A stretch of DNA of 60,218 bases, counting the filler. It is 2 parts of 2 records of this genome, joined end to end, with 100 filler letters (N's around TTAATTAATTAA, not from the genome) between each part and the next. Parts side by side here need not be neighbours in the genome. Positions count along the whole stretch, not along the records: positions 28,605 to 60,218 come from SRR20825006_2678; 1 more part is not named here. One strand, written 5' to 3'. The notes beneath the pieces are model-generated. The model searched no databases, was not told the origin of the DNA, and worked only from the letters and a program-made list of their open reading frames with translations. Below are positions 34,591 through 55,312 of the stretch, piece by piece. Numbering within the stretch: position 1 is the first letter of the stretch; each line of letters opens with the position of its first letter. The translations under genes and the position numbers were made by a program.

Positions 34591-34737
34591 TCAATCAGCT
34601 CAATCATTGAGGAGGAGTGAGGCTTCTTTCGAAGTCTCGTTCAAACGGACAGCAGGGTAAGCGAATCCGTGCTCCTGTTCCAGGCAATGAAGACGGCGAT
34701 TGATGCGAACATCAAACGCCCATTTGTGTGAGTGAAT

Positions 34738-34801: not shown

Positions 34802-34823
34802 GGTTGGCTGACTGCTTTCGAGA

Positions 34824-37800
34824 TCAGCCGGCGTTGGTGTAGTAGCCAGGGTCGTCCTTGTTGTCGCCGTCGAAGTCTCCGACGATCGGTTGCGAATCAG
34901 CGGACTCTCGCATCACGACGATGCGTTTGTCATTGGCTGTCAGCTTGCGGTCGCCATCGCTGTCGATGATCCACACATCACCTCGAACCACACCGATTTC
35001 GTCGATTCCATCGCCATCGAAGTCACCCATGATGGGTTCGTCACCAGGGCGACCAAAGTTGTGAGGTTTGGTTTTGCCCGTCCAACGGCCATCGGCATCA
35101 TCATCCAGCAACCATTGGCCGCCGCGGAAAACACCGATTTGGTCGATGCCATCGCCGTTCCAGTCTCCCGCGATGGGTGTGTCGACTTGTTCGCCGTACT
35201 GGAAGACGTGGTCCACCGCATCCGCTAGTAGTCCGCCGTCTTCGCCACGCATCAACATGCGTTGTTGGTCTTCGTTTGCGGTCGTTTCGCGTGGTACCAA
35301 TTCTTCGCGAGTCAGGCCACGTCGGCGGATGTTGGCAGGGTCGGGCAAACCGGGGTCACGTCGGATGCGAGCCCAGTCGTTTTCCCAACGGCGTCCGAAA
35401 ATCCCGATGTCGTCTTTGCCGTCTCCGTCCCAGTCACCCACCACGGGACGATCGAGTTCGGTTCCCAGGCGGACCCACATGTCGCCAGCGTCCCACTGTC
35501 CATTGCCGTTGAGATCAACGAACCATTGACCACCGATGTAAAGGACGGCTTCGTCAACGCCGTCACCATTGAAGTCACCGGTGAGCGCCGTGGCGTCGGG
35601 GTGTCCCATTTGGATGTGGGAACCCGTTTCAGGTTGCGATGCCAGCGTTCGAATCGTGGGAGTTTGGATGTGCCAAAGCCCCGCCATCAAATCATTTCGC
35701 AACAAAGAACTGGGCAGCTTGCCTTTTCGATCGCCATCTTCTTCGGCATCGCCGTCGATCCCCAATCGATAATTGGCAGGTCGAATCAGATCACCGTCGT
35801 CCGAAAACTCATCCGCTTGGACGATTGCCGAATCGGCACCATCGCCTCGAGGGAATCCACCGTTGATCACGCTGAGGTGCCAACTGACCTGCCATTCATC
35901 GGCGAAGAAAAATTGCTGATTGGGATCCAAGTGGATTCCAAATGCCATCGGTCGGATTGGAGTCTCGAACGTCTCGATGGGTGCCAAGGGGCGGGTGACT
36001 GGATCCGGTGTTGGGTATTCTGGCGGTGGGAAGACTGGCGGATCTTCGATTGCAATTTCGCTGAAGTTGTTGTTGGCGCTGGTTTGCCCCGCACCCACAA
36101 ACAGTTGCAAAATCGCGTCGAACTTTGGATCGGTTGATGCATCAGCCATCAAGTTCTGAACGGATGTTGGGAACGTCAGCGTTCCTTCACCACCGTTGGA
36201 CACAAAGTCAGCAACATTGATCGCCAAACCACCGAGTGTTCCCGGGGTATCGAGCGAATCGATGAAGCCCGCTGGTTGGACTTGATAGACCGAGTAAACC
36301 GTTTCAGGACGCAAGCCGCTGAAGATGTAATAACCATTTTCGTCGGTGGTGACGCGAATGGTTTCGGTTCCATACGTTCCCGCCAAGGCTCCGGTCGAGC
36401 TATCAACGGGCCGACCCAACACGTTTCGCAGTTCGAGCGTGACGCCGGACAAACGGGTGTCGTCGTCAGTCAGTTCACCGTCGCGGTACTTTCGCAAATC
36501 TTCCGGGCTGGGGGCCTCAACGAGCACCAAGTTTTCGCCGTCTTGGAAGACGTAACCTGAAATCGTTGCCGGCGGCAGTTCCGGGAAGTCATAACCAACC
36601 GCGTTGATTCCACCGGGAATGGTGATCTCGCCGATCACGTCATTGCGAAGGATGCGACCACCGAAGTCGCCGACAACCTGGCCGCCTTGGAAATACCCAT
36701 CGGGTTGTGATTCATGCACCGAGTAGGTTCCCGGTGGCAAGGAATCAAACGTGTAGCGACCTTCGTTGTCGGTTTGCGTCGTCGCGATGACCTGATCGGT
36801 CTCGTCACGCAATTCAATGATCACGTTGGCCAGCGGAGTCTCACCATCGTCGAAGACGCTGTTGCGAACGGTGTCCGCCCAAACCATCCCGGAGATTGTG
36901 CTGGGCAGGACTTCGCAGAAGTCGTAGTCGGTCAGCGTCTGGCCCCAACCAATCGGGATCGTTGAGATCACATCGTCAATGCTGTCGTCGCCGCCTGCAC
37001 TGCCGGCCATTTGGCTGCCTTGGTAGTAGCCTTCGGGCTGCGTTTCGCGAACGGTGTAAGAACCGGCTTGCAGGTTTCCAAAGTGATAGGAGCCGTCTGC
37101 GCTGGTCGTGGTCGTTGCAACCAATTCATCGGCCGAGTTGAACAGCTCGATCAAGACGCCGCCCAGACCGGGTTCGTCGTGGTCTTGGAAGCAGTCGGCA
37201 TCTTTGTCGACATAGACAACACCAGACAGCTCCGATGGCAAACGCTCGCAGAAGTCGTAGTCGGTGAGCGTTACACCCCAGCCGATATCGATCGTTGAGA
37301 TCACGTCGGCGACGCTGTCATCACCGCCGCCCGATCCCGCCATCTGGCCACCGTGGAAGTAGCCTTCGGGTTGCGTTTCGCGAACGGTGTAGACGCCCGA
37401 TTTCAAGTTGCCAAAGTGATAGGCACCGTTGGCGTCGGTGGTCGTACTGCCGACCAAGGCACCGTTTTCATCGAACAGTTCGACGATCACGCCGGCCAGA
37501 CCGATTTCATCCGCGTCGCGGAAGCAATCCGCATCTTTGTCGACATACACGATGCCGGATAATTCGGATGGCAACAGTTCGCAGAAGTTGTACTGGGTCA
37601 GGGTTTCTCCCCAGCCCATGTCGATGGTCGAAATCACATCGGCTTGCGAGTCGTTGCCACCGTGGCTGCCTGCTTTCTGGCCGCCGTGGAAATAGCCGCT
37701 CGGCTGGATTTCACGAACGGTGTAGAAGCCCGCTGGCAAGAAAGTGAATTTGTAGGATCCCGAGGCATCGGTCAGGGTGGTGGCAATGACGTCGCCAGCT

Positions 37801-40070
37801 TCGTTGACCAATTCGATGCGAACGCCCGACAGACCTTCTTCGCCGGGATCGCGGAAACAGTCGGCGTCACGATCGACATACACGATCCCGGAGATTTCCG
37901 ATGGTGGTCGTTCGCAGAAGTCATAGTCCACCGCGACTTCGCCCGACGTCAACGTGATCGAACCAATGCGGCTGCCGTTTTCGCTGACGCCGCCAGCCGA
38001 TCCGGGTTTGGCTCCACCTTCGAAGTAGCCTTCCGGTTGCGTTTCGATGACGGTGTAGTTGCCGGGAATCAGATCGGTGAAGTAGTAGCGACCGTCGGCG
38101 TCCGTTGTCGTTTGCGCGACTTGATTGCCGCTATCGTCGACCAACGTGATGGTCACGCCTTCTAGGACTGGTTCGTCATCGTCCTTGAAGCAGTCTTCGT
38201 CGAAGTCAACGTGCACGCGTCCACTCAGTGAAGCGAGTTGGCGCTCACCGAAATCATAGTTGACGCCGTGCAGCCCCTGACGCAGCGTGATGCTGACGAA
38301 GCTGTCTGAATCTGACCCCAAACCACCAACGGTGGTTCCGTTGATTTGACCGACCGAGTCAATGCCGTCGATGTAGCCGAGTGGCTGTGTTTCGATGATG
38401 CGGTAGGTGTCCGCCGCCAAACCGCTGAACTTGTACGAGCCATCGGGACCAGTGACGGTGGTGGCGACAACGTTTCCGTCTGAACCCACCAGCACCAATT
38501 GGGTGCCGGCGATGGCTTCTTCACCGGCGTCTCGAGTTCCATCGTTGTCGCGGTCATGATAGACCTCACCGGACAGCGATCCTGGTGCGGCTTCGCAGAA
38601 GTTGTACTCGTGACCTTCGCCGCCGGGTGGCAACGCGACGTTGGTGATTCGGCCGCCGTCGACGGATCCACCGACGGGAACGAAGATGTTCGAAGCGATC
38701 GTGCGGATTTCTCCAGGATGTGACCCGCCGTCCAGCAAGCCATCGGGAGTGATTTCGACGATCTCGTAAACACCTGTGCGAAGATCATCGAAGAGGTAAC
38801 TACCGTCCGCACCGGTTCGCGTCGTCGCGACCAATTTGCCTTGTTCGTTGATCAAACGAACTTCGACATTTTGCAAAGGCGTGCTGTCGCCTTCGTCATG
38901 ATCGCCATCGCAGTCGGCACCCGGAGCGGCCAAGTACACAAAGCCGCCAATCGAACCCAGCGGGACTTCGCCAAAGTTGTACTCCACCCCGACATCACCG
39001 CCACCGAGAACGATGTCGCGAATTTCGTCGCCGGGGTTACTCGCCGAACCAACGACTTGGCCATCGATGGTACCGGCGGCGTCTTTGCCGTCTTCTAAAT
39101 CGGCGGGTTGGTCGACTTCGACGATGCGATAGCGACCCGGCATCAAGTTCGTGAATTGGTACGAACCGTCCGCGTTGGTTTTGGTCTCGAGCTGGTTCTG
39201 TGGCGCGATCGTGTCGACGGGGATCAATCGAACGGTGACGCCCCCGAGGCCCACTTCGCCGGCGTCTTTGGTTCCGGAGTCGTTGTCATCTCGGTAGACA
39301 AAACCACCGATCGAGGCGGGGATTGGAGTCTGCGTCGCCGTTCCGACCGCGGCGGCGGATCGGTTGGGCCGACTGTCAATGTCGGTGCCTTCGTCTGGTG
39401 GCAAATCCAAACCGTAGTCTTGGGCTGGATCCCCGAAGTCGTTCAAGAAGATCGCATCGGCTTCGGCAGCGTAGTAGTCCGGAGCTTCGAAGAGGGCTTC
39501 CAAAATTGAATCTTGAAACTCTTGCCCCGACGTGATCACGTCGAGTCGTTGGTTGAACTCTTCCAGGTCGGGAAGGTTGCGCAGCACTTCGTCCACGTCG
39601 ATCGTGAACTCCAAGCGATCGCCAGCGCTGAAGCCACGAAAGTTCAGCTTCAAAACTTGTCCACCATCGTCCACCGTTGCGGTCACATCGGCGGGAGTCC
39701 CATCAAGGGTCTCAATTTTTTGCACCGTGAATGGGTGCGCACCGTTTTTACCGCGGCCGCCCACTTCGGTATCAAAGATCGGGTCACCAACCGAAATTCC
39801 GTCGCCGTCTTTGTCCGTGCGGATGATCAATTCCGTCAGCTCGGTGCCGGGTGCTCCGCCGGTGAACGAAAGCAGAAACCGGTCACCCTTGGAGTCGCTG
39901 CCGACGTCTTGGTCGGATTCCAAATAGTCCGTTTCTAGATAGACCAATCCCACATGGATCGGATCCGCCACCATCAAACGACGATTCTCCAGCGACTCGA
40001 TGCGCATCTTCCGCCCTGTCGAAGCAGAAGTGTTGGGTGTTAGCAATCGTTCGAGACGTTTCCAGATCAC
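34824..40070 (-). CDS. Large surface/secreted protein: planctomycete extracellular leader, nine SdrD-B/Cna-B-like repeats, C-terminal FG-GAP/VCBS-like repeats
   Basis: 'ESLENRRLM' leader; repeats 'SG.VY.D.D.D...D..E..L.GV.I.L...TT...G.Y.F..L..G.Y.V.E.QP.GY'; 'GDFNGDG/GDWDGDG'. AAGGAGG RBS before GTG 40070. Confidence 0.88.
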   Translation of the reverse strand: MIWKRLERLLTPNTSASTGRKMRIESLENRRLMVADPIHVGLVYLETDYLESDQDVGSDSKGDRFLLSFTGGAPGTELTELIIRTDKDGDGISVGDPIFDTEVGGRGKNGAHPFTVQKIETLDGTPADVTATVDDGGQVLKLNFRGFSAGDRLEFTIDVDEVLRNLPDLEEFNQRLDVITSGQEFQDSILEALFEAPDYYAAEADAIFLNDFGDPAQDYGLDLPPDEGTDIDSRPNRSAAAVGTATQTPIPASIGGFVYRDDNDSGTKDAGEVGLGGVTVRLIPVDTIAPQNQLETKTNADGSYQFTNLMPGRYRIVEVDQPADLEDGKDAAGTIDGQVVGSASNPGDEIRDIVLGGGDVGVEYNFGEVPLGSIGGFVYLAAPGADCDGDHDEGDSTPLQNVEVRLINEQGKLVATTRTGADGSYLFDDLRTGVYEIVEITPDGLLDGGSHPGEIRTIASNIFVPVGGSVDGGRITNVALPPGGEGHEYNFCEAAPGSLSGEVYHDRDNDGTRDAGEEAIAGTQLVLVGSDGNVVATTVTGPDGSYKFSGLAADTYRIIETQPLGYIDGIDSVGQINGTTVGGLGSDSDSFVSITLRQGLHGVNYDFGERQLASLSGRVHVDFDEDCFKDDDEPVLEGVTITLVDDSGNQVAQTTTDADGRYYFTDLIPGNYTVIETQPEGYFEGGAKPGSAGGVSENGSRIGSITLTSGEVAVDYDFCERPPSEISGIVYVDRDADCFRDPGEEGLSGVRIELVNEAGDVIATTLTDASGSYKFTFLPAGFYTVREIQPSGYFHGGQKAGSHGGNDSQADVISTIDMGWGETLTQYNFCELLPSELSGIVYVDKDADCFRDADEIGLAGVIVELFDENGALVGSTTTDANGAYHFGNLKSGVYTVRETQPEGYFHGGQMAGSGGGDDSVADVISTIDIGWGVTLTDYDFCERLPSELSGVVYVDKDADCFQDHDEPGLGGVLIELFNSADELVATTTTSADGSYHFGNLQAGSYTVRETQPEGYYQGSQMAGSAGGDDSIDDVISTIPIGWGQTLTDYDFCEVLPSTISGMVWADTVRNSVFDDGETPLANVIIELRDETDQVIATTQTDNEGRYTFDSLPPGTYSVHESQPDGYFQGGQVVGDFGGRILRNDVIGEITIPGGINAVGYDFPELPPATISGYVFQDGENLVLVEAPSPEDLRKYRDGELTDDDTRLSGVTLELRNVLGRPVDSSTGALAGTYGTETIRVTTDENGYYIFSGLRPETVYSVYQVQPAGFIDSLDTPGTLGGLAINVADFVSNGGEGTLTFPTSVQNLMADASTDPKFDAILQLFVGAGQTSANNNFSEIAIEDPPVFPPPEYPTPDPVTRPLAPIETFETPIRPMAFGIHLDPNQQFFFADEWQVSWHLSVINGGFPRGDGADSAIVQADEFSDDGDLIRPANYRLGIDGDAEEDGDRKGKLPSSLLRNDLMAGLWHIQTPTIRTLASQPETGSHIQMGHPDATALTGDFNGDGVDEAVLYIGGQWFVDLNGNGQWDAGDMWVRLGTELDRPVVGDWDGDGKDDIGIFGRRWENDWARIRRDPGLPDPANIRRRGLTREELVPRETTANEDQQRMLMRGEDGGLLADAVDHVFQYGEQVDTPIAGDWNGDGIDQIGVFRGGQWLLDDDADGRWTGKTKPHNFGRPGDEPIMGDFDGDGIDEIGVVRGDVWIIDSDGDRKLTANDKRIVVMRESADSQPIVGDFDGDNKDDPGYYTNAG
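36913..38245 (-). repeat. Intragenic tandem repeat with 333-bp period (111-aa SdrD-B units)
   Basis: TCGCAGAAG anchor recurs at 36913, 37246, 37579 and 37912. Confidence 0.85.
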
Positions 40071-40165
40071 GTTTGGTACCTCCTTGTACCGCACATTGAT
40101 TTCAGTTGGACGCGAGGGAGTTCAGGTCAGCTGAAGGAATGGAAGGATGAGATGTGGTCGATGGG

Positions 40166-41326
40166 TCAGCGAGGTGTCGGTTCGCTGGCCGGGGTCGACC
40201 CGTCGTTGCCGAGTGCAATCTTGCTGTCCGCCATTGCGTTTCGATTCAAATCCCAACGCCGCAAAGTCGCGTCAAATCCGCCGGAGAACACCATGCCATC
40301 GACTGCGGCAAGCGTTGCCACTGATCCGACATGGCCTCTGAGTTGCCCGGACACATAAAGCGATCGACCGTCGTCGGCCAAGTCGACCAGGTGAATCACA
40401 TCGTCGCTGCCAGCCGCCGCAATGCGATGACTGTCGACGATCGCCAACGAGAACAAGCGTCCCGAGGTGATCTTTTGTCGCGAAAGCACTTCGTTGGTCA
40501 GCGTGTCCCAGCGTAAGATCACCCCATCTTCGTCGACACTGACCAAAACGTCCGAGTTTGGCATGAACGCCAAGTCGCGAACACGTCGTTCGTGTACGTG
40601 TTGGTCCGCGATCAGTTTGCCCGTCTTGGGATTGAACAGGTGCAGGTGCCCGTCGCGACCAGCGATCGCAAGTGCTTCGCCATCGTGGCGGTAAACACAG
40701 CAACGCAGATCGTTGCAGTCGCACAACAGTCGATCGTTTTGGCTTGGTTCGTTTGAAATCAAGAAGACTTCTTTATCGAATCCAACCGCAACCATTTGGT
40801 GGCCGGTCGGTGAGAAATTGACACACGCCAACGCGGGCGCGGATCCGATTTCTTGCAACACGGTGAATTGTTCGTTCCGGTCCCAGATCACCAAGCGACC
40901 ATCGTTTCCAGCGGATGCTAATCTGCTTCCCGTCGCATCAAAGGCCAACGTGCGAATCATGTCGCTGTGGCCGATCGGTGATTCTCCAGAACGCTGTCCG
41001 TCGCCCAAAGTGCGAACGACTTGCAACGTTTCCTGACGAAGCAAACGAATCACATGGTCGTCGCCCGCGACAGCCAACCATTCGCCACGAGGGTCAATCG
41101 CCAGTGCGGTCACAACCACCTGTTTCACGCGGTCATCGACCGGTGGAAGACGAACCACACGCGCCGTGGGCAGGTCGTTGGCGGTGATCAATTGAGTGGG
41201 CTCGCCCACCAACTGAACGCCATTGACGCCCAAAGGCGGTTCCGCCAACGCATTCCAAGCCGGTGAGGCCATGGATGCGGTTGCCAGTGCGACCAAGAGT
41301 TGACGTCGATTGATTGTGTTTCTCAT
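40166..41326 (-). CDS. WD40-repeat protein with twin-arginine signal
   Basis: 'INRRQLLVALATASMAS'; WD repeats 'GHSDMIRTLAFD...LVIWD', 'GHVGSVATLA...LRRWD'. Confidence 0.85.
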   Translation of the reverse strand: MRNTINRRQLLVALATASMASPAWNALAEPPLGVNGVQLVGEPTQLITANDLPTARVVRLPPVDDRVKQVVVTALAIDPRGEWLAVAGDDHVIRLLRQETLQVVRTLGDGQRSGESPIGHSDMIRTLAFDATGSRLASAGNDGRLVIWDRNEQFTVLQEIGSAPALACVNFSPTGHQMVAVGFDKEVFLISNEPSQNDRLLCDCNDLRCCVYRHDGEALAIAGRDGHLHLFNPKTGKLIADQHVHERRVRDLAFMPNSDVLVSVDEDGVILRWDTLTNEVLSRQKITSGRLFSLAIVDSHRIAAAGSDDVIHLVDLADDGRSLYVSGQLRGHVGSVATLAAVDGMVFSGGFDATLRRWDLNRNAMADSKIALGNDGSTPASEPTPR

Positions 41327-41488
41327 TTCGTATGCCCCCGCATGACGAACCAGGGTGAGGCGACGCGTTCCTTGCGTACGCACTCCAATCGGAAGGATCG
41401 GCATGATCCGTCCAGGTCGTGAACCGAAATCTGCGCGCAGCGTGTTTCGAGATCGGAATCGAGTGGGGGGAAGGGATCGAGTTCGTAT

Positions 41489-42520
41489 TCACTCGGTCGG
41501 GTCAAGAGCCGTTTGGCCACCTGTCATCCGGAGATACGCCACCGCTAACGGCAGACTCGCGATCGGAGTGGTGATCGCTTGGCCGATGTAGAGCAACAAA
41601 GCACCAACCGTGGACAGCAAAAAGTAGAACGTGACGACTTTCAGGCTCACCCGCCGATGCACCCACGACAATGCAAAACTCTGCTGCAGACTTTGCCCGA
41701 AAGAGGATCGGCCGTCGGCGATCAAGCAAACGCATGGCCAAAGTAGCCACTGCAACGCGAAGATCAGAACGAAATAAACGCAGCCGACGGAGAACGTACC
41801 AACCAGCGTCGCAGTTTCACGAGGAAAGGGAAGGACCAACATGAATGCGATCATGACGCCCACTCCCACCACCAGCAGCATTCCCATCATCACGGCGACG
41901 AACAACATGAACAAAGTCATGTGAAACAGCACACGCGGGGGAACGGACAGACTTCCACGAGACGGCATCGCGTCCGATCCGGGAGCGAATCGAACGGGGG
42001 TCTGGTTTCGGCCACGGCCATAGCGAGCCACGGCCAACGTCATCCTAGCCATCACGGACGTTGTGTAGGCGGTGGTCAAAATACCGACACAGACCACCAT
42101 TAACGTCGCGAGAACAAAGGTCGGTATTTGACTCGCGTCTTGTTGTGCCACGGTCCAGAGATCGCTCAGTTTGCTGCAGGGCCAAGCAACCAAAACAAAC
42201 CAGATCAACGTTGTCAGGCAAGACACGCTCAAAAGGACTTTCCAATTGCAGCGAAACAACTGAAGGGCGTCAAACAAAACACTCTCAACCGAGGATTCGT
42301 TGGGCTTCAACAATGAGACGGCTCGTTGCCGGTTGGCAAACGAATGCGGGTCGGCGGGGACCTGGTTGCCGGCAACCTGCAAGTCGATCAAATGCGAGCA
42401 AGCAGCGCATGAGCCGCTGTGAAGCGTTTGGTTGTTCGATTCGTTGTTGCGTGAAACAATGGGGAATTCGATCAATGCCACACAGTTGGGGCAGGTCACT
42501 CGCAGTGCTTGGTCGCTCAT
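41489..42520 (-). CDS. Membrane protein with N-terminal Zn-ribbon
   Basis: 'TCPNC...CAACSH' followed by about 6 TM helices. Start trimmed to MSDQAL. Confidence 0.7.
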   Translation of the reverse strand: MSDQALRVTCPNCVALIEFPIVSRNNESNNQTLHSGSCAACSHLIDLQVAGNQVPADPHSFANRQRAVSLLKPNESSVESVLFDALQLFRCNWKVLLSVSCLTTLIWFVLVAWPCSKLSDLWTVAQQDASQIPTFVLATLMVVCVGILTTAYTTSVMARMTLAVARYGRGRNQTPVRFAPGSDAMPSRGSLSVPPRVLFHMTLFMLFVAVMMGMLLVVGVGVMIAFMLVLPFPRETATLVGTFSVGCVYFVLIFALQWLLWPCVCLIADGRSSFGQSLQQSFALSWVHRRVSLKVVTFYFLLSTVGALLLYIGQAITTPIASLPLAVAYLRMTGGQTALDPTE

Positions 42521-42536
42521 CAGGAATTCCCAGCAT

Positions 42537-43469
42537 TCATGCTTTGGATTCGTCCGAATCGGCCGTTTCGCGATCGCCGTCCGATGATGTTTTGCTTTTC
42601 GAACCTTTGTCCGCGGAGGCATCTTTGCTTTCAGTTTCTTCGGCGTCGACTTCTTCCGATTCGGCTAACCAAGGATTGTCCCAATCGCCAATTTGCGTCA
42701 TGTAATCGGCGCAGGCCTGGCACGTTTCGCTTTCCTTTTCGATCCAATCACGTGTCTGCTGGACCAGTTCGATCTCTCGTTCCAATTCCAGTTTGCCCGT
42801 CAGAACCATGCACCGCAGGAACACGAAGTACGTGTCCAACACATCGCAGCGACAGTAGTCGCTGATCTCCTTCTGATTGCCGGCATCGTAAGACGCTTGG
42901 ACCTGATCGCCACTGAGTCCCATTTTGCCGGGTTTGTTCAACGTTTGGGCGGCTAAGTTGAGTCCTCCGTTGAATCGCGCGGCACCGAAGTTGGTCAGCA
43001 GTTCCTGCAAATCCAAGTGGGCATGCGTGCTGAACCGGTTGCGACGCGATTTGTAGCCGCTGTCGTCAAACCATTTGGGAATCGAAATTCCATACCGGAA
43101 CGCTGACAGTTCCATGATTGGGATGTCAAACGATCGGCCGTTGAATGTCACCCACTGTGGCATGTTGTACATCTCCCAGCCTTGCCAGAAGTACTTGGTG
43201 ATGACATGTGGGCGAAACTCGGGTTCGTCCAGCGATTTGATGTCCACCAAACGAAAGTCGGATGTGACTTTGGCGACCACAACCGCGATGGGAACCTGAA
43301 AAGTGTGGGGGATAAACGTCGATCCGGTTTGTTCCAATCGTTCGGCTTGATACTTCGCAATGGCCTCGTCCGGGGACAAGTCTTCACCCGAGTAGCGGAC
43401 GCGCGAGATGAGATCGCCATCGGCGATGCTTTCGACGTCAAAGATCAGGTGTGAGACTGAGTCACTCAT
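42537..43469 (-). CDS. Stand-alone PolB-like 3'-5' exonuclease (DEDDy)
   Basis: ExoI 'FDVES', ExoII 'TFNGRSFDIP', ExoIII 'YCRCDV'; acidic tail. Confidence 0.88.
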   Translation of the reverse strand: MSDSVSHLIFDVESIADGDLISRVRYSGEDLSPDEAIAKYQAERLEQTGSTFIPHTFQVPIAVVVAKVTSDFRLVDIKSLDEPEFRPHVITKYFWQGWEMYNMPQWVTFNGRSFDIPIMELSAFRYGISIPKWFDDSGYKSRRNRFSTHAHLDLQELLTNFGAARFNGGLNLAAQTLNKPGKMGLSGDQVQASYDAGNQKEISDYCRCDVLDTYFVFLRCMVLTGKLELEREIELVQQTRDWIEKESETCQACADYMTQIGDWDNPWLAESEEVDAEETESKDASADKGSKSKTSSDGDRETADSDESKA

Positions 43470-43617
43470 GGTGCTTCCTTTTCAACGATTGCCCGTGACC
43501 GGATGGGCCGAGATTGCCTTCGTCGCGGGACATTTTGATCGGTGCAAACAAACTACCACAGACTCACCGAGATTGGGTGTTTCCAGCTGTGGATGAATCG
43601 CATCGATCGAGGCGAAT

Positions 43618-44421
43618 TCAGAGCACTAAAAAGGTGAAACCGGCGATCACGGCGGCTTCGGCCAGCACACCTTTCGCGAATTCATGCCGGGTGCCATCGG
43701 TATGCAATGGTTCGATCGGGCATGCGTAACGTTGGCAAGTCTTGCAGTCGCCTGCTGAGTTGACGCACTGACAATGCGGTTCGCTACCCATTCGATACGG
43801 CCAAACGGCGGTGTTGGTGAGGAACCAGAACGTGGAGACCGCGTTGGTCAAACAGCCGTGTCCATTTCCGCAGCGTTCCAAATTTCGTTCTTCAAAGTGC
43901 AATGGTTGATGGAAGAAACAAACCGGGTAACGATCGTAAGTTGGGATTTCATACCAATCGCTTTCGATCACGTGCGATGCCATTGGTGTGAGCAATTCCG
44001 CTGCGTGGTTTTCCGGAAACGCCCCCGCGACATCCGCCTGAACCACGCGAATTTCGCGAATGGGTTTTTCGAGTGCCGCAAATCGCGACTGCAGCCTTTT
44101 CGCGGCGCGTTGCTGCGGGTCCGTTTGGGTGGCGTCTGATGAGGATGCTCGGTCGGTCAATTGGTGCGAGACCGTTTGGGCGGCTTGCGTGTGGCTTGAA
44201 TCGCCCTGCAGCATGGTTCGAAACGTGGCGGACTGTGTTGCGGGTGCCAATGACACCGAGTGCGATTGTTGGGCGTTCGCTGTCGCTGAGACGAAAGCAG
44301 AACAACCGAGCACCAGCAGCGCGATTCGCCAGGCACGACCGATCCAGAGTGGTCGAGAAACATCGGCGAAGATGATTGCGGTCGATCGCGATTGAGCCAT
44401 CATTGCTTGGGTGAAGTTCAT
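43618..44421 (-). CDS. Hypothetical exported protein with Cys-rich C-terminal domain
   Basis: Signal peptide; 'HQPLHFEERNLERCG', several Cys, hydrophobic C-terminus. Confidence 0.65.
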   Translation of the reverse strand: MNFTQAMMAQSRSTAIIFADVSRPLWIGRAWRIALLVLGCSAFVSATANAQQSHSVSLAPATQSATFRTMLQGDSSHTQAAQTVSHQLTDRASSSDATQTDPQQRAAKRLQSRFAALEKPIREIRVVQADVAGAFPENHAAELLTPMASHVIESDWYEIPTYDRYPVCFFHQPLHFEERNLERCGNGHGCLTNAVSTFWFLTNTAVWPYRMGSEPHCQCVNSAGDCKTCQRYACPIEPLHTDGTRHEFAKGVLAEAAVIAGFTFLVL

Positions 44422-44716
44422 AGCTTCGCTTCAATTTGCGTCCAGTTCCGGAGGGAACTCACGCAGGTCCCTCATGGTCTGAATCGGCGGAACCCGTTCC
44501 TTTCCCCATTTTGATCGCAACAACCGCTAAACCGGGGAGAATCGTTGCAATCGGAACACCTTAACGTTGCAATTTGGGCGGTTTCTTCCACCAGAACCAG
44601 TTCTTCGGTGGGGACGAGGCTTTTGAATGTTCCTGAAGCAAGTGCGGATTAGAATATTTCTTCGCGAAATCGTCTCGATACACGTTCGTCACTCGGTCAC
44701 CAAAGCCTCCTGAATC

Positions 44717-47326
44717 ATGCGATTTCTCCAGTCCAAATTGGCTCGCGATTGGAGGCCGAAGGCGTCGCGAATTTGGTCGCGTTCGTGGGCAAAATGGACT
44801 CGAGCCGATGCCGCCGAAGTCAGGCCGCCGGCCCGGTTTGTTCCGAGCATTCGTCCGCTCGAGAGACGGTTGGTTCTCAATGCGACTGCCGAGCTGACCG
44901 CGTTGGGTGAATTGTTGGTTCAAGGGGACGCGGGGTTTGACACCATCGAATCATCGCTCACTCCGGGCGGCGAACTTCAGTTCACAGATTCGGTAACCGG
45001 CATCATCCCCATCACGATTGGCCAAGACGTGATTGGCAATCCGATTCAGGTCGATTCGATCGGCGTCGACGCTATCACCGGTGGCCGCGTTCGAGTGAAC
45101 TTGGGGGCTGGCAACGATTCGTTGCTCTTGCGATTGCCTGATGGTTTGGATGCCACCGTTCGCGGCGGGCTCGGAAACGACAGCGTGGATGTCGAAGTGC
45201 TTTCGCCATCAACCATAGGAAACAATGTCGACGTATCGGCGGAGATGATCTCGGTCCGCGGGAACGCAACGACATCATTCGCGTTGTTGCCTGAGTTGGG
45301 AATGTCGGTCGTCAACATCAACGAACTGACCACCGAGGATGTCGGACGCGTCGACTTGGGAGAAGCAACCACCACGGTTCAAGACCGAGTGCAATTGATC
45401 GGGCTGCAAGACGATCTGGTTTTGGAATCGCATTTGACCACGCCGGTGTTGGAAGTCACCGGCCAAGGTGCGGTCCGTCAGTTGGCGACCAGTACTTTGG
45501 TGGTCGACGACTTAGATGTAACCGCGGATGCGGAAGTGACGTTGAATCAATCCGGCAACCAAATTTCCAACGTCCGAATACTCACGACCAATGCAGATGT
45601 GCAATTGGTCAGCCAGTCTGATTTGATTGTGGAGCAGATCGATGCCGGCAACGCGCGAGTCGAGGTGTTTGCGAATTCAATCAACGATTCCGCCGTGGAC
45701 AATTTGGCTGATTTTATTGCAGACGATCTTCTTCTTGAAGCAAACGACGGCATCGGCAACATACGAGAGTTGGAGTTGCAATCGGTGACTCAATTGGACG
45801 TTGATGCCGGTGATGGAAACGTGGACTTGGTTTGGTTGGCGGTGGACGAACCGGTGGTTGCGCGCGTCGAGTTTGGCGCGGGCGACTTTCGTTTGGAACA
45901 ATTCGGTGGACTTGATCTGACTCTCGAAAAAGTACTCGTTCACCAAGGTTCCATCTGGGTTCGCAACGATGGTGATGTGATCATCAAAGACGTGATGGCC
46001 GGCGATGGGTTCGTTGACGTGCACGCTGAGGGCGATTTGATTTTGATGGATGATGAATCCGTCGAGGATGGATCCGATCGCAAGTTGGATCCCGAAGTCG
46101 TGGCACTTGGGACCGACGGCCGAGTGCGGTTGTCATCCTCACAACGGATTGTGGCGTTGGATGATGTGCAGATCCAAGCGGCTTCCATTGATGCCGGCGC
46201 GGTGACACTTTCTGCACCCGCGATCGAACTCGGTCGGCAATTCGAAATCAATACCGGGGATGGCGTCGGAATCGCGAGACAATTCACACCGCGACCGGTG
46301 CTCGACCCCGAAGACCTTGTTCCACCCAATCCCGATTTGCCGCCCCGTCCGGCTGCTCCTCCGGTTGCGCCGGAACCTGGTGAATTGACCGAAGCGTTCT
46401 ATCAGCATGACTCCATTCGCACGAACATCCTGTCACAGTTTGATGTCAATGACGCCGAGGGAATCTTGTCGGTCAATCTCGGAACCGAAGGTGAAAACGG
46501 TCTGACATTGATTGTTGACTGGGGAGCCGAAACGGAACGGTTCCAACGTGTCGAAAATCTTCCTGGATCGTTTCAAACGACCAGTGTCAGCCATGTGTAT
46601 TTAGAAAACGACATTCTCGAATCGACATTGAATGGACGCGGAAGTGCCACCGACCCGTTGAACGTTTTGTTTGCGGTGGAGCATCATGAATCGATCCAGT
46701 TGATCGGCGAATCCATCACGCAACCCAACACGGACGGGCTTCTCGTTTCGTTGGATGTTCCCGGAAGCGTGATTTCATCAACGGACAATCCTTTGACACA
46801 AACCTCAGCTGGTCCGATTCTGGAATCAGGGGCAGCGTTCTTTGTCATTCCACGTGTGAATGTCCCGCTTGCTTTTTTACCTGTCCGAGATGTCATTCCC
46901 GAGCCGGTTGATCCGGTGACCCCCGTTGTGATAACGACCACCACAACGCTCACGAGCGTGACGTTTGAAACGTCCGAAGCTTCGTCCAGTCCAACAGCGA
47001 TTCGAGAAGAGTTCTTTCAACTCCGTGCTCTTTCGCCCGATCCCGACGCGGCGGATTTGATCGAACCGGTGCGTTTGCCGGACCGATCCTTGGAAAGTGA
47101 TTCCTTGAACCGACTCTTTTCGAAACTTCCCGATGGCGAGTACGAAATTCAATATGTGATTGGCGAGTCGGATGAACGCACGATTCTGCAGGTTGAACTG
47201 AGAGATGGACGTCCGATTCAAACCGGTGATGACTTGGAAGCGGGAACGCTGCGTTTGATTCCGCTCGACTTAGAAGAGTTGGATTCGGATCAACTCCCAA
47301 AAGAGGAGCGTGATCGTGACGAATGA
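44717..47326 (+). CDS. Large acidic beta-rich protein with planctomycete extracellular (LExRxxL) leader
   Basis: 'IRPLERRLVLNA'; 'VNLGAGNDS', 'GGLGNDSV' RTX-like turns; Pro/Thr linkers. Confidence 0.75.
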   Translation: MRFLQSKLARDWRPKASRIWSRSWAKWTRADAAEVRPPARFVPSIRPLERRLVLNATAELTALGELLVQGDAGFDTIESSLTPGGELQFTDSVTGIIPITIGQDVIGNPIQVDSIGVDAITGGRVRVNLGAGNDSLLLRLPDGLDATVRGGLGNDSVDVEVLSPSTIGNNVDVSAEMISVRGNATTSFALLPELGMSVVNINELTTEDVGRVDLGEATTTVQDRVQLIGLQDDLVLESHLTTPVLEVTGQGAVRQLATSTLVVDDLDVTADAEVTLNQSGNQISNVRILTTNADVQLVSQSDLIVEQIDAGNARVEVFANSINDSAVDNLADFIADDLLLEANDGIGNIRELELQSVTQLDVDAGDGNVDLVWLAVDEPVVARVEFGAGDFRLEQFGGLDLTLEKVLVHQGSIWVRNDGDVIIKDVMAGDGFVDVHAEGDLILMDDESVEDGSDRKLDPEVVALGTDGRVRLSSSQRIVALDDVQIQAASIDAGAVTLSAPAIELGRQFEINTGDGVGIARQFTPRPVLDPEDLVPPNPDLPPRPAAPPVAPEPGELTEAFYQHDSIRTNILSQFDVNDAEGILSVNLGTEGENGLTLIVDWGAETERFQRVENLPGSFQTTSVSHVYLENDILESTLNGRGSATDPLNVLFAVEHHESIQLIGESITQPNTDGLLVSLDVPGSVISSTDNPLTQTSAGPILESGAAFFVIPRVNVPLAFLPVRDVIPEPVDPVTPVVITTTTTLTSVTFETSEASSSPTAIREEFFQLRALSPDPDAADLIEPVRLPDRSLESDSLNRLFSKLPDGEYEIQYVIGESDERTILQVELRDGRPIQTGDDLEAGTLRLIPLDLEELDSDQLPKEERDRDE

Positions 47327-50300
47327 TAAAGATCGACAAGGCGAACCAGATCACGGTTTACCGGAGGATGAGAATGCGACCGAAAATCATTTCAGTTTGG
47401 ATGAGACGGTTGAGGAAACCGATTCGATTGAACGAAACGATCATCGCGGGCTGAGCGAAACGGTCGATCATGTCGACTTGGATGCAACCTTGGACGAAGG
47501 CAATATCATTCCGGTCGCTCCTTCAAACGATCCGGATGCGACGGTCGCTGATTTGGACAAAACCGTCGAGGAAACCGACCAGACGGTGCAAGATACCGAT
47601 CAAACCATCATTGAAAATGAGCTGACCGTAACGAACGCCGATGCAACGATTGCGGATGCGTCTTCGACGGTTTCAGATGTGAATGAAACGATCGCGGAAG
47701 ACGCTGACTTTGACCCAGATGAGACGCTGCTTGAGGCGGACCAAACGGTATCGGACTCCAATGTCACGGTTGTCGACGAAACGTTGAACGACGTGGACGC
47801 AACCGTTCAAGAGTCGGACCTGACCGTGGTGGAAACAGAGGCCACCGTTGATCTCAATGCGACGTTGGATAAAACGGCGGAAAAAACGATCCCCACCATC
47901 CACGCCAATTCCAAGACTCGAGAGGATGCGAACGAGGCGACCGAGGGAACCATCCTGACCGACGAAGACATTGGTCAAACCATCAACCCTCGCGAATTGA
48001 CATCCGAGGACGTGAGTTATTGGTCCAAACTGTCGCAGGAATTTCACACCGGTGCGGCGACGGTTGCGTCGTTTAGTGAGTTTGGATCGGCGGTTGCCGG
48101 TTCGTCGTTACCTCTGCGTGGGCGGCAAGTCACGACTCCGCAGGAAAGCGAAACCGAAGCGTCGGACTACCGATTGGTTCGGTTGCTTGGCAAAGGTGGG
48201 ATGGGCAATGTTTTCGTTGCTCGGCAAGGATCTTTGGATCGATTGATCGCGGTCAAGATCATCAAGCCGTTGGAAGAAGACAAACGCGACGCACTTCGGA
48301 AACAGGGGCGATTGGAGTCCACTGAGAACAGCCGGCGTCAGCAGTTCTTGACCGAAGCGGTGATCACCGGCGACTTGGATCACCCCAACATCGTTCCAAT
48401 TCATGATGTGGCGGTGACTGGTGAGAACACTTTGTTCTACGCCATGAAGCGAGTCGTCGGCACGCCTTGGAACAAAGTCATCGGTGAGAAGTCGCGGGAT
48501 GAGAATCTCGAGATTCTCATCAAAGTGGCCGACGCAATCGCGTTCGCTCACACGCGAGGGATCATTCACCGAGACATCAAACCTGAAAACGTGATGCTGG
48601 GGGATTTCGGTGTCGTGATGGTGATGGATTGGGGGATTGCGTTGGCGATGCCTCAGTTTGAAAAACTCAATTCAATCACACCCGCGAAAGGATTGGGTGG
48701 CACACCATCGTTCATGGCGCCTGAGATGGCGACGGGACCGTTAGAGGCGATCGGTCCAGCGGCGGATATCTATTTGCTCGGTGCAACGCTGTTCATGATC
48801 GTCACCGGCAAGGCACCGCACCACGCAAAGAATGTTCGAGAGTGTTTGCGAGCGGTCGCGACCAACGAAATTCGCGAAGTGGACCCACGGCACGAAGGCG
48901 AACTGCTTAACATTGCTCGCAAAGCGATGGCGACTCGCATCGAAGACCGCTATTCGAGCGTGATCGAGTTCCAAGAAGCCATTCGCGAATACCGATCGCA
49001 CTCCGAAAGCATCTCGTTGGCGGCCAGGGCGACAGATGATCTGAACAAGGCCGAGCAGACGCTTTCGTACACGTTGTTCTCACGAGCGACGTTTGGGTTT
49101 GAGGAAGCACTTCATCTGTGGGATGGAAACCAAACAGCGCGAGAGGGCATCGCTCGGGCGCGGTTGGCTCACGCTTCCGCAGCTCATGACAACAAAGACT
49201 TTGATCTTGGTTTGTCGTTGCTGAAACCGGATGGCTTGTTGCTGCATGATTCGCCCGAGCACGAAGCCCTGGCGACGAAGCTGGAACAAGCCATTCAAGA
49301 CCGCAAGGCTCGTGAGTCGCGGTTCAAGTTCTTGAAGCGTGCCGTCGCTGCGATGTTGTTGTTCATCTTTGTCGGCGGTGCGTTCGCATTGGTGACGATC
49401 AACGCGAAAGAACAAGAGGCACGGCAATTTGCAGAGAATGCGGAGCTGAGACGCAAGGAAGCTGAGGAGCAAAGGAAAATCGCAGAAGGTGCGACCAAAC
49501 AAGCGAGAAACAATTTGCAATTGGCCGAGGATAACTTGGATCGCGCTTTGGCTGGGGAAGAGTTAGCGAAAAAAAACGCGGAGAAGGCGGACGCGAATGC
49601 AAAGGAAGCCGTCGAAAACGCGAAGCTCGCTGTTAAGAATGCGAAGGAAGCGGAACGCAACGAAAAACGCGCCGAGTTAAATGCAGAGGAGGCTCGCATC
49701 AGTGCAAACGCCGCCCTGGTTGCTCAGGAGAAGGCCGAGATCGCTCGAGCCGAGGCGGAATATGAGTCGTATGTTTCGCAGATCGGGCTGGCCAAAGCGC
49801 GTGTGGATCGGAACGAGTTCTCCGACGCTCGACGTATCCTTTCGGAATTGACCGAAGACTATCGAGAGCGGTTTCCCAACGATCCATTGCCGTGGGAACT
49901 GCGCTGGTTGTCAGCGACCGTTCATCAATCCAAAACAGTCGCTTCGCTACCCGTGATCGCGGATCAATTGTTGTTGGCTCAGGCTCCAACGAGTGAGTCT
50001 CGGCGTGGTTTGATTGTTCAAGATAATGGAAAGATTGCGACGTTTTCTCTTGCCAATACTGATCGATTGGCGATGGCGGAAGCATGGAGCGATCCCGATG
50101 GTGGATTCGTCACGGCTGCGGCGATGAATGAATCAGGTGAACAAGTTGCACTCGGAATGCTCGACGGAAAAATCGAAATTTGGAACGAGGATTTGTCCGT
50201 TCGCGTTTCACGATTGCCGGCGCACGACGGACCGGTTAGCGATCTTGGTTTTGCCGACTCGAATACTTTGGTTTCGTCATCCACAGATCGCACCATTCGG

Positions 50301-53101: not shown

Positions 53102-55312
53102 TCAGCTATCCGCACGGAAGTGGGTGGCCAGCCAGTGCTTGGTTCGTTTCCACAGCGAAGAAGGCTCAACGTGCACGCTCACGCTGGTTGTCCAATTGGA
53201 TGGTGGAGCAAAATTAAACGGTCGCTTGTCTGAATCCAGTGCAACAGTGACTTTGTAAGTCCCATCATTCTCGGACGGACGCGTGCCCACTTCTGTGACA
53301 TTTCCCGTCCATGTGGTGCCTGAAGGGAACGACGTGACGGCTGATTGGCCCTCTCGTATCCATCCGATCTGCGATGCGTCAACGGACACAGAAACCTTGT
53401 GTTGATCGTTTGATACGACGTTGCAAATGGGAGTTCCGCTGCTGATCCAAGCTCCTCGGTTGATCGCTTCAGTTGGCTGGCCACTCCATCCGATTTGGGA
53501 TCTTGATCGCTGCCAGGGTGTGATGGGATTGGCCGAAACCGCAACGATCTGACCCGCGTGAGGTGAACGAATCTCAAGGTGCTCCGATTCCTTTTGGATC
53601 GTCAGCAGTTCTTCGCGTTTGGCTTGCAAAGCGAATTCAATGGTCGGGATATTGGCCAAGGTGGTAGTTCCGGCGTCCGATTGGATGCGGCTCATGCGAG
53701 TGCCCTTCAGGCGAGCTTCCAACTCAGCAATCTCGCCCTCAAGGCGTTCGATTTGGAGGGTGGTTTTCCAGTCTGACAGCCTGACGAGTGGTTCGTTGAC
53801 CCGCACCAACTGTCCCGTTGAGGCAATTGATTCCAGGCGACCCGTGGTCAATGCAAAGATCTTTGATTGCTGGATCGGTTGAACCTTCGCCGTTGCCTTC
53901 ACGCGGTGAGGAAGCGGTGTGAAGAGAATTGCTAGCAACAAGACGGCAACCATGCCAATCATCAACCGAGAACGGCGGCGAGCTTTCCCAGGAGCGAGAT
54001 CGGATGGAGTTCGCACGATGGGAGCGGTCCAAGCTCGCATCACGCGATAAAGGAGAATCACGATTGCGACGATGCCAATGGCGGTCGCACCGATCGACGC
54101 GAGATGGTTGAGTAGAAGCCAGCCGATGGCTCCGAAGATCACCAAGCGATAAGCAGTGCTAGCAAGTGCGTAGGCGAGCAATCCGATAGAGTCGCGATCG
54201 TCTTGCACCGTGGTGGGTTGGGACTGTGATTCCGTTTGAACCGAAGATGGACCCCAAAACCAAGACCGCAAACGCATTTGTAAAACGCTGCGCGAACGTG
54301 TTGCTAGATTGGGAACGGAGGCCGCGTCGGACAACAGATAGTAGCCGTCGTAACGCATCAATGGATTGCCGTTGAGGATCAACGTGTTGACCGATGTGAC
54401 CATCAATACGAACAGCAATATGTTTTGCGGAAGTCCTGGCATCGAATGAGTCCAGGCGACCAGTGCGAGTGATCCAATTACGCATTCAGCCAGGATTCCT
54501 GCGGCGGAGACGAGCATTCGTTTCCATGGTTGCGGTATCAACCAAGCGTCGCTGACATCGCAATACAAACAAGGGATGCCGAATAACAGCATGACGCCCA
54601 TTTCGTGACAGCTTCCTCCGAACCATTTGCAGGCGATTGCGTGGGCGAGTTCATGGATCAGCTTGACTCCCGAAATCACAATCGCCAAAACGATCCAAGT
54701 GGATGGGGATTGCAACGCCTCGGTGCTCTGACCGATCGCCGGAATCAATTGTTCCCAGTGCGTGAGAAGAATGGCTCCTGCGAACAACGCCCACGCCGAA
54801 CCAAAGATCACGAAGGCATGTCGATTCCTTGCAACAAAGTTTCGAACGAATTGCACCGGTCGATCAAGCCATCGATCGGGATCCACCAACGGGATTCGAA
54901 TTGCCAACGGATTTTTAACCGCACGTTGCCAAAAAGACTTTTTCAATTCGCATTGCTGGGTTCTCGCTTCACTTTGCGAGATGGCTTGAGTTCCGACAGC
55001 TGACGCGGTGGTGAGCCAAGTGTTTTGATTGGCTTGGTTGATGAATGCCGCAAAGTCTTCTCGCGAAAGTTTGATTGGTGCGAGCAGACGTTGGCAATGA
55101 AGGTGAGCTTGCTCGAACGTTCTTCGTCCATCCAGGCTTTGCAGAACCGCAAATTCTTGCTCATTGACCATCCACTGCGCTGAGGAGCGATCGTGGGAGC
55201 CTCGCGTGGATACCACGGGATCTCGGATGACCCACTGAAAGGTTTTCCCAACGCGGATGATCCGGCAGATCAAATCCGGACGCAATCGAGGTTGGATGGC
55301 CACGGAATTCAT
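53102..55312 (-). CDS. M50 (site-2) metalloprotease fused to a HlyD-like adaptor, with PqqD/RRE-like N-terminus
   Basis: 'HELAH', 'CHEMGVM', 'NGNPLMRYDGYY'; N-terminal 'PRLRPDL..IRDP...LQSLDGRRT'; C-terminal lipoyl/coiled-coil 'IRSPHAGQI'. Confidence 0.82.
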   Translation of the reverse strand: MNSVAIQPRLRPDLICRIIRVGKTFQWVIRDPVVSTRGSHDRSSAQWMVNEQEFAVLQSLDGRRTFEQAHLHCQRLLAPIKLSREDFAAFINQANQNTWLTTASAVGTQAISQSEARTQQCELKKSFWQRAVKNPLAIRIPLVDPDRWLDRPVQFVRNFVARNRHAFVIFGSAWALFAGAILLTHWEQLIPAIGQSTEALQSPSTWIVLAIVISGVKLIHELAHAIACKWFGGSCHEMGVMLLFGIPCLYCDVSDAWLIPQPWKRMLVSAAGILAECVIGSLALVAWTHSMPGLPQNILLFVLMVTSVNTLILNGNPLMRYDGYYLLSDAASVPNLATRSRSVLQMRLRSWFWGPSSVQTESQSQPTTVQDDRDSIGLLAYALASTAYRLVIFGAIGWLLLNHLASIGATAIGIVAIVILLYRVMRAWTAPIVRTPSDLAPGKARRRSRLMIGMVAVLLLAILFTPLPHRVKATAKVQPIQQSKIFALTTGRLESIASTGQLVRVNEPLVRLSDWKTTLQIERLEGEIAELEARLKGTRMSRIQSDAGTTTLANIPTIEFALQAKREELLTIQKESEHLEIRSPHAGQIVAVSANPITPWQRSRSQIGWSGQPTEAINRGAWISSGTPICNVVSNDQHKVSVSVDASQIGWIREGQSAVTSFPSGTTWTGNVTEVGTRPSENDGTYKVTVALDSDKRPFNFAPPSNWTTSVSVHVEPSSLWKRTKHWLATHFRADS

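Follow-up and report, generated by a model that had tools for sequence, protein, structure and literature searches.

The window analysed here, that is, the whole stretch of 60,218 nt made up of two joined parts (positions 28,605-60,218 come from SRR20825006_2678), encodes two large surface-type proteins, P0001 and P0002, with similar N-terminal leader motifs. Close to them lies a cassette for an RRE-M50-HlyD fusion protein, two further HlyD-type adaptors and a TolC-type outer-membrane factor, RRE being the recognition element of ribosomally synthesized and post-translationally modified peptides (RiPPs). The closest named homologues of the window proteins are from Rhodopirellula, and the host is a Rhodopirellula-like bacterium; genome-wide comparisons were made with G001, the closest genome, which is 99% identical over the region. 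Planctomycetes encode dozens of very large surface proteins per genome without a normal signal peptide, and the exit route of these proteins has been an open question for twenty years. The original prediction on this DNA held that the leaders are export signals and that P0001 and P0002 are candidate cargo of the neighbouring M50/HlyD/TolC system.

34824..40094, minus strand: P0001, a 1756-aa surface-type protein; from the N-terminus, leader, conserved N-domain, SdrD_B repeats (nine), Pro-rich linker, FG-GAP-like C-terminal domain
39960..40019, minus strand: leader motif of P0001, residues 26-45, PF07595 match
44717..47326, plus strand: P0002, 869 aa, with a leader, an all-beta body, a Pro-rich linker and a conserved C-terminal domain
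44849..44884, plus strand: leader motif of P0002, IRPLERRLVLNA, residues 45-56, an LEPR-xLL-type core without the upstream RRRLxxE half

Two large proteins with a planctomycete leader

Both predicted motifs, at 39966-40001 on the minus strand and 44849-44884 on the plus strand, were read in the translations: residues 32-43 of P0001 (40001..39966) are IESLENRRLMVA, and P0002 has the sequence listed above. Among the 35 stop-to-stop open reading frames (ORFs) of at least 250 aa in the window, P0001 and P0002 are the only ones with the leader pattern in their first 130 residues. Shuffling of the N-termini of these 35 ORFs gave a mean of 0.016 matches and none of 2000 shuffles reached two, so the motif common to P0001 and P0002 is not due to chance. 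The predicted lack of a Sec h-region was borne out by the maximum 10-residue Kyte-Doolittle mean (KD10), a crude measure standing in for a dedicated signal-peptide predictor, which was 1.40 for P0001 and 1.31 for P0002 versus 1.78-2.82 in eight neighbours with evident signal peptides. Within the first 90 residues, the longest run containing none of D, E, K, R, N, Q, H and P was 5 aa in P0002 and 9 aa in P0001 (residues 73-81, in the mature domain). By this crude hydropathy measure, neither protein has the h-region of some 7-15 uncharged residues, following a basic n-region, that marks a Sec signal peptide or, where S/T-R-R-x-F-L-K comes first, a Tat one.

P0001 matched SdrD_B of Pfam with 447 bits in nine stretches, and its C-terminal 418 aa matched FG-GAP_3 at 29.2 bits. 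Its leader was detected by PF07595 (Planc_extracel; gathering threshold 25.5) with 28.0 bits for the whole protein and 33.7 bits for the first 80 aa. The first 270 aa have a single-copy orthologue in 36 of the 41 Pirellulaceae genomes sampled. Twenty orthologue N-termini were taken, of which three in the wrong frame were left out, and all 17 readable ones have an [LM]ExRxx[LMF] core directly before a conserved DPIxVGxVY domain. These 17 include the orthologues of G032 and G027, genomes in which PF07595 finds no match or one weak match (L031 and L030; example FEKMEPRRMLDA); since such leaders are missed by PF07595, counts of leader proteins based on curated hidden Markov models are underestimates. 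The orthologue in G004 matches NF012209 (LEPR-8K, LEPR-XLL), showing that orthologues switch between PF07595 and NF012209. Matches of P0001 to TIGR04183, the tail of type IX secretion cargo, and to MSCRAMM were rejected as sorting signals; they lie inside the SdrD_B repeats (residues 871-905 and similar) and not at the C-terminus, and are best read as repeat cross-matches.

For the first 100 aa of P0002, neither PF07595 nor NF012209 gave a match even at E<=10, and PF07595 misses it because the upstream RRRLxxE half is absent. The motif is kept in all eight database homologues and in all five genomic homologues from other genera in the form [x]LE[KRP]R[LI]VL[ND]A, several distant homologues having the canonical LEPRLVL (LEPRLVLNA), and L48, E49, R51, V53, L54, N55 and A56 are invariant in the eight-sequence alignment. 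The N-terminus of P0002 is a divergent leader of the LEPR-xLL type, of the form LE[KRP]RLVLNATAEL. NF012209 (cut-off 17 bits) likewise gave no match for the N-terminus of P0001 at E<=10, nor for P0008-P0011 at E<=1; despite this, the LE-x-R-x-L/V-L core is visible by eye in both P0001 and P0002. The likeness to the planctomycete extracellular and LEPR-xLL motifs, named in the original prediction, holds, by the PF07595 match of P0001 and by the LEPRLVL of the P0002 homologues. The Pro-rich linker before a distinct C-terminal domain is also visible in both sequences, and that of P0002 (residues 516-575) is modelled as disordered.

Leader anatomy was examined in G001, which has 27 PF07595 matches above threshold. 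From 20 of the best matches, 18 leaders were parsed, one being without the pattern and one in the wrong frame; the column counts over 19 rows include the wrong-frame row. The consensus is RRR-L-x-x-E-x-L-E-x-R-x-L-L-A-[AG]-D, with R at -8 to -6 in 12-14 rows, L at -5 in 15, E at -2 and L at +6 in 16 each and A at +7 in 17, and conservation ends after LLA[AG]. The 40 residues upstream contain 20% Arg and 6% Lys, and none of the 18 leaders has a hydrophobic core (maximum KD10 <=1.91). Trp occurs in the 40 upstream residues of only 6 of the 19 leaders, so the Trp-containing basic stretch noted ahead of both motifs is not typical of leaders in general. In all cases the motif is N-terminal, with a conserved domain directly after it.

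The available text of PMC8567305 gives the leader consensus as RRLxxExLExRxLLA (Studholme et al. 2004) and still describes it as a presumed novel N-terminal export signal, in agreement with the earlier statement that the export route is unresolved. According to the same text, Tuwongella has 52 motif genes, 20 products of which were detected by proteomics, eight of them only in the sodium dodecyl sulfate (SDS; envelope) fraction; proteins with the motif carry cadherin, Calx-beta and thrombospondin domains (accessible part of PMC3343278). The leaders are thus real, conserved and of an already known kind, and have no hydrophobic core. We infer that P0001 and P0002 are exported cell-surface proteins with the planctomycete leader, an Arg-rich stretch followed by LExLExRxLLA or LEPRxLL.

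The neighbouring RRE-M50-HlyD/TolC cassette

53102..55312, minus strand: RRE-M50-HlyD fusion protein, 736 aa, with an RRE-like domain at residues ~1-105 (54998-55312), HExxH at 220-224 (54641-54655) and HlyD from ~450
55309..56439, minus strand: HlyD-type periplasmic adaptor, 376 aa, matching TIGR01730 RND_mfp (103.6 bits, cut-off 94.9), HlyD_3 and HlyD_D23
56433..57818, minus strand: HlyD-type adaptor, 461 aa, matching Biotin_lipoyl_2, HlyD_3 and HlyD_D23
58046..59935, plus strand: TolC-type outer-membrane factor, 629 aa, matching Pfam OEP (70.1 bits, two stretches), divergent from the adaptor operon

Profile matches and a model of the N-domain agree with the original description of the neighbour as an RRE-M50-HlyD fusion accompanied by two further HlyD adaptors and TolC. 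The fusion protein scored 154.5 bits against NF041824 daptide_HExxH (cut-off 300), 26.9 against Peptidase_M50 (cut-off 27.2) and 48.4 against HlyD_3. The best curated matches of its M50 core are the RiPP leader peptidases NF041824 and NF058609, both below cut-off, and H220, E221, H224, N314, N316, P317 and D322 are invariant in 91 sequences. By these motifs the protein is an M50 relative, having both HExxH and the NxxPxxxxDG-type motif yet passing no curated model. Its HlyD half matches MacA, MexA and EmrA sequences. The family comprises 3127 clusters at E<=1e-30; a word-index search with the RRE region returned only six close relatives. No family was found for the first 190 aa of the 461-aa adaptor in the Pfam and NCBIfam profile searches.

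A model of the fusion protein N-domain (residues 1-200, 22 sequences) reached a predicted local distance difference test score (pLDDT) of 84.1, with strands at residues 8-30 and 46-50 and helices at 51-96. Its top Foldseek matches were the RREs of TruD, LynD and the lasso B1 proteins 6jx3_B and 5v1v_A, the latter two solved with leader peptides, together with PqqD (5sxy), PbtF and MccB. The match to 6jx3_B had E 6.3e-3 and a template modelling (TM) score of 0.68 on the target; overall the fold matches ranged from E 6e-3 to 0.1, none reaching E<=1e-3, with TM scores of 0.60-0.68 on small targets. Weak profile matches to TfuB1 (E 0.11) and PqqD (E 0.64; NCBIfam PqqD E 0.032) point in the same direction, and 'RRE-M50' seems a fair description at the level of the modelled fold. 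An RRE of the PqqD-like type is a winged helix with three beta strands and three helices to which leader peptides bind. Residues 37-45 of the RRE-like domain (window ~55177-55203) form a nine-residue insertion, STRGSHDRS, of lower model confidence, which is absent from all 21 aligned homologues.

With gaps of 18 and 228 bases, the cassette could not accommodate a small precursor gene. In G001 there are six M50 cassettes; its two short SecA-like genes lie at 69 kb and 1.06 Mb, the first of them inside the cassette at 65-72 kb, which is of the locus type of Kamneva et al. 2015. The M50-HlyD protein was found in 41 of 41 Pirellulaceae genomes, so its presence or absence cannot discriminate within the family.

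Co-occurrence of leader and cassette protein across the phylum

The co-occurrence sample comprised 151 genomes of the phylum from 69 taxonomic families. A genome was called leader-positive with a match to NF012209 at E<=0.01 or to PF07595 at E<=1e-4, and the M50-HlyD protein was searched with the N-terminal 440 residues as query at E<=1e-15. PF07595 is nearly family-specific, being found in 39 of 41 Pirellulaceae genomes (E<=1e-3) versus 3 of the 151 phylum genomes (E<=1e-4), and was useless for this comparison by itself; NF012209 was found in 23 genomes and the M50-HlyD N-half in 44. In this co-occurrence check, proposed with the original prediction, 24 of 25 leader-positive genomes have the M50-HlyD protein, versus 20 of the 126 without a leader match (Fisher p 8e-15, odds ratio 127). 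The lone leader-positive genome without it, G189, has a weak leader match (E 0.004). Counted by taxonomic family, the figures are 17 of 18 versus 8 of 51 (p 3e-9), and in families f5 (one of four genomes) and f20 (one of two) it is the same single genome that is positive for both the leader and M50-HlyD.

In several genomes, from several families, the genes are neighbours. TolC, a 603-aa gene, M50-HlyD, a SecA-like gene and an LEPR giant follow one another on one strand in G144; TolC, SecA-like, HlyD, a 648-aa gene and M50-HlyD are divergent from an LEDRVLLS protein in G146; M50-HlyD and SecA-like lie beside two LEPRLLL proteins in G101; an LEPR protein is divergent from TolC, SecA-like and HlyD in G027; and two cassettes of G001 are divergent from giants with LEDRVLLS and LEPMVLFSA. 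By chance, one leader-cassette pair within 10 kb would arise with a probability of 0.015 in G144 and of 0.003 in G162. Outside Pirellulaceae the SecA-like query could not be separated from canonical SecA by E-value, and only frame lengths and neighbours were taken from that comparison. A correlation of leader and M50-HlyD gene counts over the 41 Pirellulaceae genomes (rho 0.32, p 0.04) was discarded, as each count rises with genome size (rho 0.47 and 0.49). Over the phylum as a whole, leader and M50-HlyD family co-occur, and their genes are often adjacent.

P0002 and its kinase partner

47310..53084, plus strand: P0003, a 1924-aa Ser/Thr kinase with WD40 propellers (Pkinase at residues 287-519, WD40 at ~900-1924)
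43618..44421, minus strand: 267-aa protein without a Pfam match, transcribed divergently from P0002

P0002 belongs to no family in Pfam or NCBIfam. Its AlphaFold2 model, built from eight sequences (mean pLDDT 65.9), has a disordered leader (residues 1-63), an all-beta, solenoid-like body (~65-515, pLDDT 75-96), the disordered linker and a poorly modelled C-terminal domain; against the PDB no fold was matched at E<=1e-3, the top matches being autotransporter beta-helices (E 0.037). The start of P0003 overlaps the end of P0002, and a P0003 homologue (38-41% identity) directly follows the P0002 homologue in all six Pirellulaceae genomes that have one (window 44717-53084; L007+L008, L009+L010, L011+L012, L013+L014 and L015+L016). 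This gene order indicates that P0002 and P0003 form a conserved two-gene operon and are functionally tied, and it suggests that the exported beta-solenoid of P0002 could be a partner or ligand of the WD40 sensor part of P0003. In G022 and G014 the P0002 homologue has a homologue of the 267-aa gene next to it, which, with the window included, makes three of six genomes.

In G022, which belongs to another genus, a block with TolC, HlyD-HlyD-M50HlyD, P0003-P0002 and the 267-aa gene is syntenic with the window. Within this block (L007 6810-13524), TolC is 74% identical to its window counterpart, M50-HlyD 28%, the three inner-membrane or periplasmic cassette proteins 28-34% and P0002 and P0003 40-53%; either the cassette evolves very fast, or it was exchanged while TolC stayed. 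The synteny of the cassette with P0002 is suggestive, and the arrangements of G001 and G022 may go back to a single ancestral one. In G014 (C60; L011+L012 12943-16009), a 650-aa short SecA-like gene, 37% identical to the SecA-like gene of the G001 cassette, and the homologue of the 267-aa gene lie directly upstream of the P0002-P0003 pair, and no M50-HlyD gene was found in the 40 kb fetched around it.

Other features of the window

Window positions 1-20000 map to 1.39-1.41 Mb of G001 (97% identity), 3.6 Mb from the position of the right part, of which 39500-45500 maps to 4.98-5.00 Mb (99%). The window is thus rearranged relative to G001, with a breakpoint somewhere within 20000-39500. The segment 10611-19937 contains two gene pairs in tandem, each of a PSCyt1/PSCyt2/PSD1 gene (989 and 1101 aa) and a DUF1501 gene (508 and 506 aa), and G001 has many paralogues of both at 65-73% DNA identity. 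At 28652-31985, divergent genes for RtcR, a sigma-54 activator, and the RNA ligase RtcB form an RNA repair module unrelated to the leader finding.

A proposed export route and its alternatives

We give about even weight to the reading that the leader is the address tag of RRE-M50-HlyD/TolC machines that span the envelope and usually include a truncated SecA-like ATPase. The cytoplasmic RRE domain would dock the leader, the fused intramembrane M50 metalloprotease would remove it close to the LLA[AG] boundary, and the adaptors and TolC would carry the protein across the periplasm and the outer membrane; cassettes lacking SecA, such as that of the window, would be powered by a SecA-like ATPase encoded elsewhere. 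The window cassette may serve the sub-class of leaders seen in P0002. A fuller picture, which we consider possible and hold only tentatively, is that the leader, an orphan signal peptide since 2004, belongs to an undescribed two-membrane pathway in which the RRE docks, M50 cuts, HlyD and TolC make up the conduit and a truncated SecA is the energy source. The SecA-less paralogues would then each serve one leader sub-class, that of the window being LE[KRP]RLVLNATAEL, and export of P0002 would be coupled to the kinase P0003.

The original suggestion that the leader peptide binds the M50 N-terminal region was examined by complex prediction. M50-HlyD residues 1-440 with P0002 residues 20-80 gave an interface score (ipSAE) of 0.57 in three runs, the best of three controls giving 0.10; the pLDDT of the partner was 48-50, at least 63% of contacts were common to the runs, and the output consisted of scores without an interface. 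In the calibration, 51 of 78 solved complexes and 2 of 108 mismatched pairs came up to the mark for a pass. Passes at a score of 0.60 or below comprised only 5 of the 78 solved complexes and all 4 of the passing mismatches, and among blind neighbour pairs 7 of 44 passed as well. The result falls in the weak class of passes and lends weak support to a docking of the P0002 leader on the N-half of M50-HlyD.

Several results weigh against the export reading, beginning with this docking score, a class of pass which is more often wrong than right without a good prior. Nearness was tested in eight single-contig Pirellulaceae genomes with 115 leader genes detected by PF07595 (E<=1e-3) or NF012209 (E<=0.01), 44 M50-HlyD loci and 18 short SecA-like loci, random rotation serving as the null. 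Within 20 kb, two M50 loci had a leader gene versus 3.24 expected (P 0.85), and one SecA-like locus versus 1.23 expected. The P0001 orthologue lies within 20 kb of an M50-HlyD locus in one of eight complete genomes and 70 kb-2.3 Mb away in the other seven. A cassette adjoins the P0002 homologue in two of six genomes (G001 and G022; 40 kb fetched) and none is found within the 40 kb in G015, G026 and G010, compared with the kinase in six of six. Among the window ORFs scanned there is no ABC transporter, no SecA-like ATPase and no evident inner-membrane channel for a cargo of 869 or 1756 aa, and small peptides are the substrates of the curated families closest to the RRE and M50 parts. On the side of the phylum-wide comparison, 20 of the 126 leader-negative genomes have M50-HlyD, and so do G021 and G032, both without a PF07595 match, the P0001 orthologue of G032 having the undetected variant. 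The searches of that comparison were capped, the one with PF07595 scoring at most 54 candidates per genome, and its statistics count relatives as independent and include no control gene family. Nearness in the window itself is no better than chance and proves nothing, and that of the cassette to P0001 is most likely a coincidence. The original argument from genes encoded within 15 kb is not supported; the claim that such proteins are cargo of an M50/HlyD/TolC system draws its support from co-occurrence and operon examples and, weakly, from the complex prediction, at the level of the system family.

The same results shape the alternatives. The leader could be an export or sorting tag for another route, or for Sec with an adaptor, with the cassettes handling something else, for instance small leader peptides or signalling, and sharing only the phyletic range of the leader, a reading that we regard as rather unlikely but the strongest of the competitors. 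It accounts for the lack of local leader enrichment near M50-HlyD in Pirellulaceae, for the 35 of 44 M50-HlyD loci there without a SecA-like neighbour (9 of 44 have one within 10 kb), for the small RiPP peptides processed by the closest curated RRE and M50 families and for the cassette protein in leader-negative genomes. We also know of no M50 protease that forms a protein channel. In the accessible text of Kamneva et al. 2015 (PMC4452313), a channel role for M50 is put forward only as speculation. Such a merely shared range sits poorly with 24 of 25 versus 20 of 126 genomes and 17 of 18 versus 8 of 51 families, with the coincidence of both features in the same single genome of f5 and of f20, and with the one-strand or divergent adjacency in G144, G146, G101, G027 and G001, given the chance values for G144 and G162 stated above; small peptides as the substrates are opposed by the window cassette, whose gaps are too short for a small precursor gene.

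That P0001 and P0002 both have the window cassette (53102-59935) as their dedicated exporter and leader peptidase is improbable in our view, even though each is encoded within 15 kb of it, G022 has a syntenic block that includes P0002, and the complex prediction with the P0002 leader scored above its best control, a weak support. P0001 orthologues are remote from any M50-HlyD locus in seven of eight complete genomes; with 31 leader genes and six cassettes, G001 is expected to have about one pair within 20 kb by chance; G015, G026 and G010 have P0002 homologues without a nearby cassette and G014 only a SecA-like gene; and no ATPase is encoded in the window. Very improbable is the reading that the motif is no export signal at all and acts instead as, say, a pro-region, a tag for regulation or degradation, or an anchor near the membrane in proteins of the cytoplasm or periplasm. 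Neither N-terminus has a recognizable Sec or Tat feature, and export through the leader motif is presumed, which leaves room for such a role; yet the motif is always N-terminal, directly before a conserved domain, and is found on proteins built of extracellular-type domains, in the window SdrD_B and FG-GAP, and in the available part of PMC3343278 cadherin, Calx-beta and thrombospondin, while the accessible text of PMC8567305 places 20 of 52 Tuwongella motif proteins among those detected, eight of them only in the SDS fraction. For the reading of the leader as an address tag of RRE-M50-HlyD/TolC machines, co-occurrence, operon examples and fold assignment make the question of leader and machine directly testable, and, if it is true, the leader peptide, the RRE domain and the HExxH site are simple experimental handles.

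Comparison with known systems

The planctomycete extracellular motif is said to originate with a 2004 article by Studholme, Fuerst and Bateman in FEMS Microbiol Lett 236:333. P0001 is a member of PF07595, with which both proteins share an N-terminal motif on large extracellular-type proteins without a normal signal peptide; P0002 differs in that the first half of the motif is missing and the model does not pick it up, so that membership holds for P0001 only. NF012209 has the same position and the same LE-P/x-R-x-L-L core, but P0001 and P0002 fall below the model. The region after the leader in two G001 giants, which we take to be DUF4347-like, is absent from them.

The cassette resembles the 'secondary SecA_DEAD' locus of Kamneva, Poudel and Ward 2015, described in the accessible text as Peptidase_M50-like/HlyD with further HlyD, sometimes OEP, and no ABC transporter (PMC4452313). 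The window has M50-HlyD (736 aa), HlyD proteins of 376 and 461 aa and OEP of 629 aa, likewise without an ABC transporter, and differs in having no SecA_DEAD gene and no detectable GAF domain among the ORFs scanned. The accessible text of that article names no cargo for the locus (PMC4452313), and in the literature searched, to the extent available, no link between leader and cassette was found beyond Kamneva et al. 2015. The motif is thus not new, having been on record since 2004, and the cassette type has been described since 2015.

As to RiPP systems, the N-domain resembles in its modelled fold, below significance, the RREs (PqqD-like, and TfuB1 and TbiB1 of lasso peptides), and the M50 part resembles in sequence, below cut-off, the leader peptidases NF041824 (daptide) and NF058609 (YydH/LiaK). 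In the window, by contrast, these domains are fused to a HlyD adaptor, and the candidate substrates are large proteins and not short precursor peptides.

In type I secretion with a peptidase-containing ABC transporter (PCAT), HlyD and TolC, an N-terminal leader is recognized in the cytoplasm and cut during export through a conduit of membrane fusion protein (MFP) and TolC. The logic of leader, cut and conduit is the same as proposed here, and MFP and outer-membrane factor components are encoded in the window. The difference is that the ABC transporter and the C39 peptidase are missing, with an RRE and an intramembrane M50 protease in their stead, that the cargo reaches thousands of residues, and that no RTX or C-terminal signal family was matched on P0001 or P0002 in Pfam and NCBIfam. 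If the proposed reading is true, this would be a novel mode of transport for giant proteins through two membranes, in which RiPP-style leader recognition is joined to a SecA-derived motor that replaces the ABC transporter.

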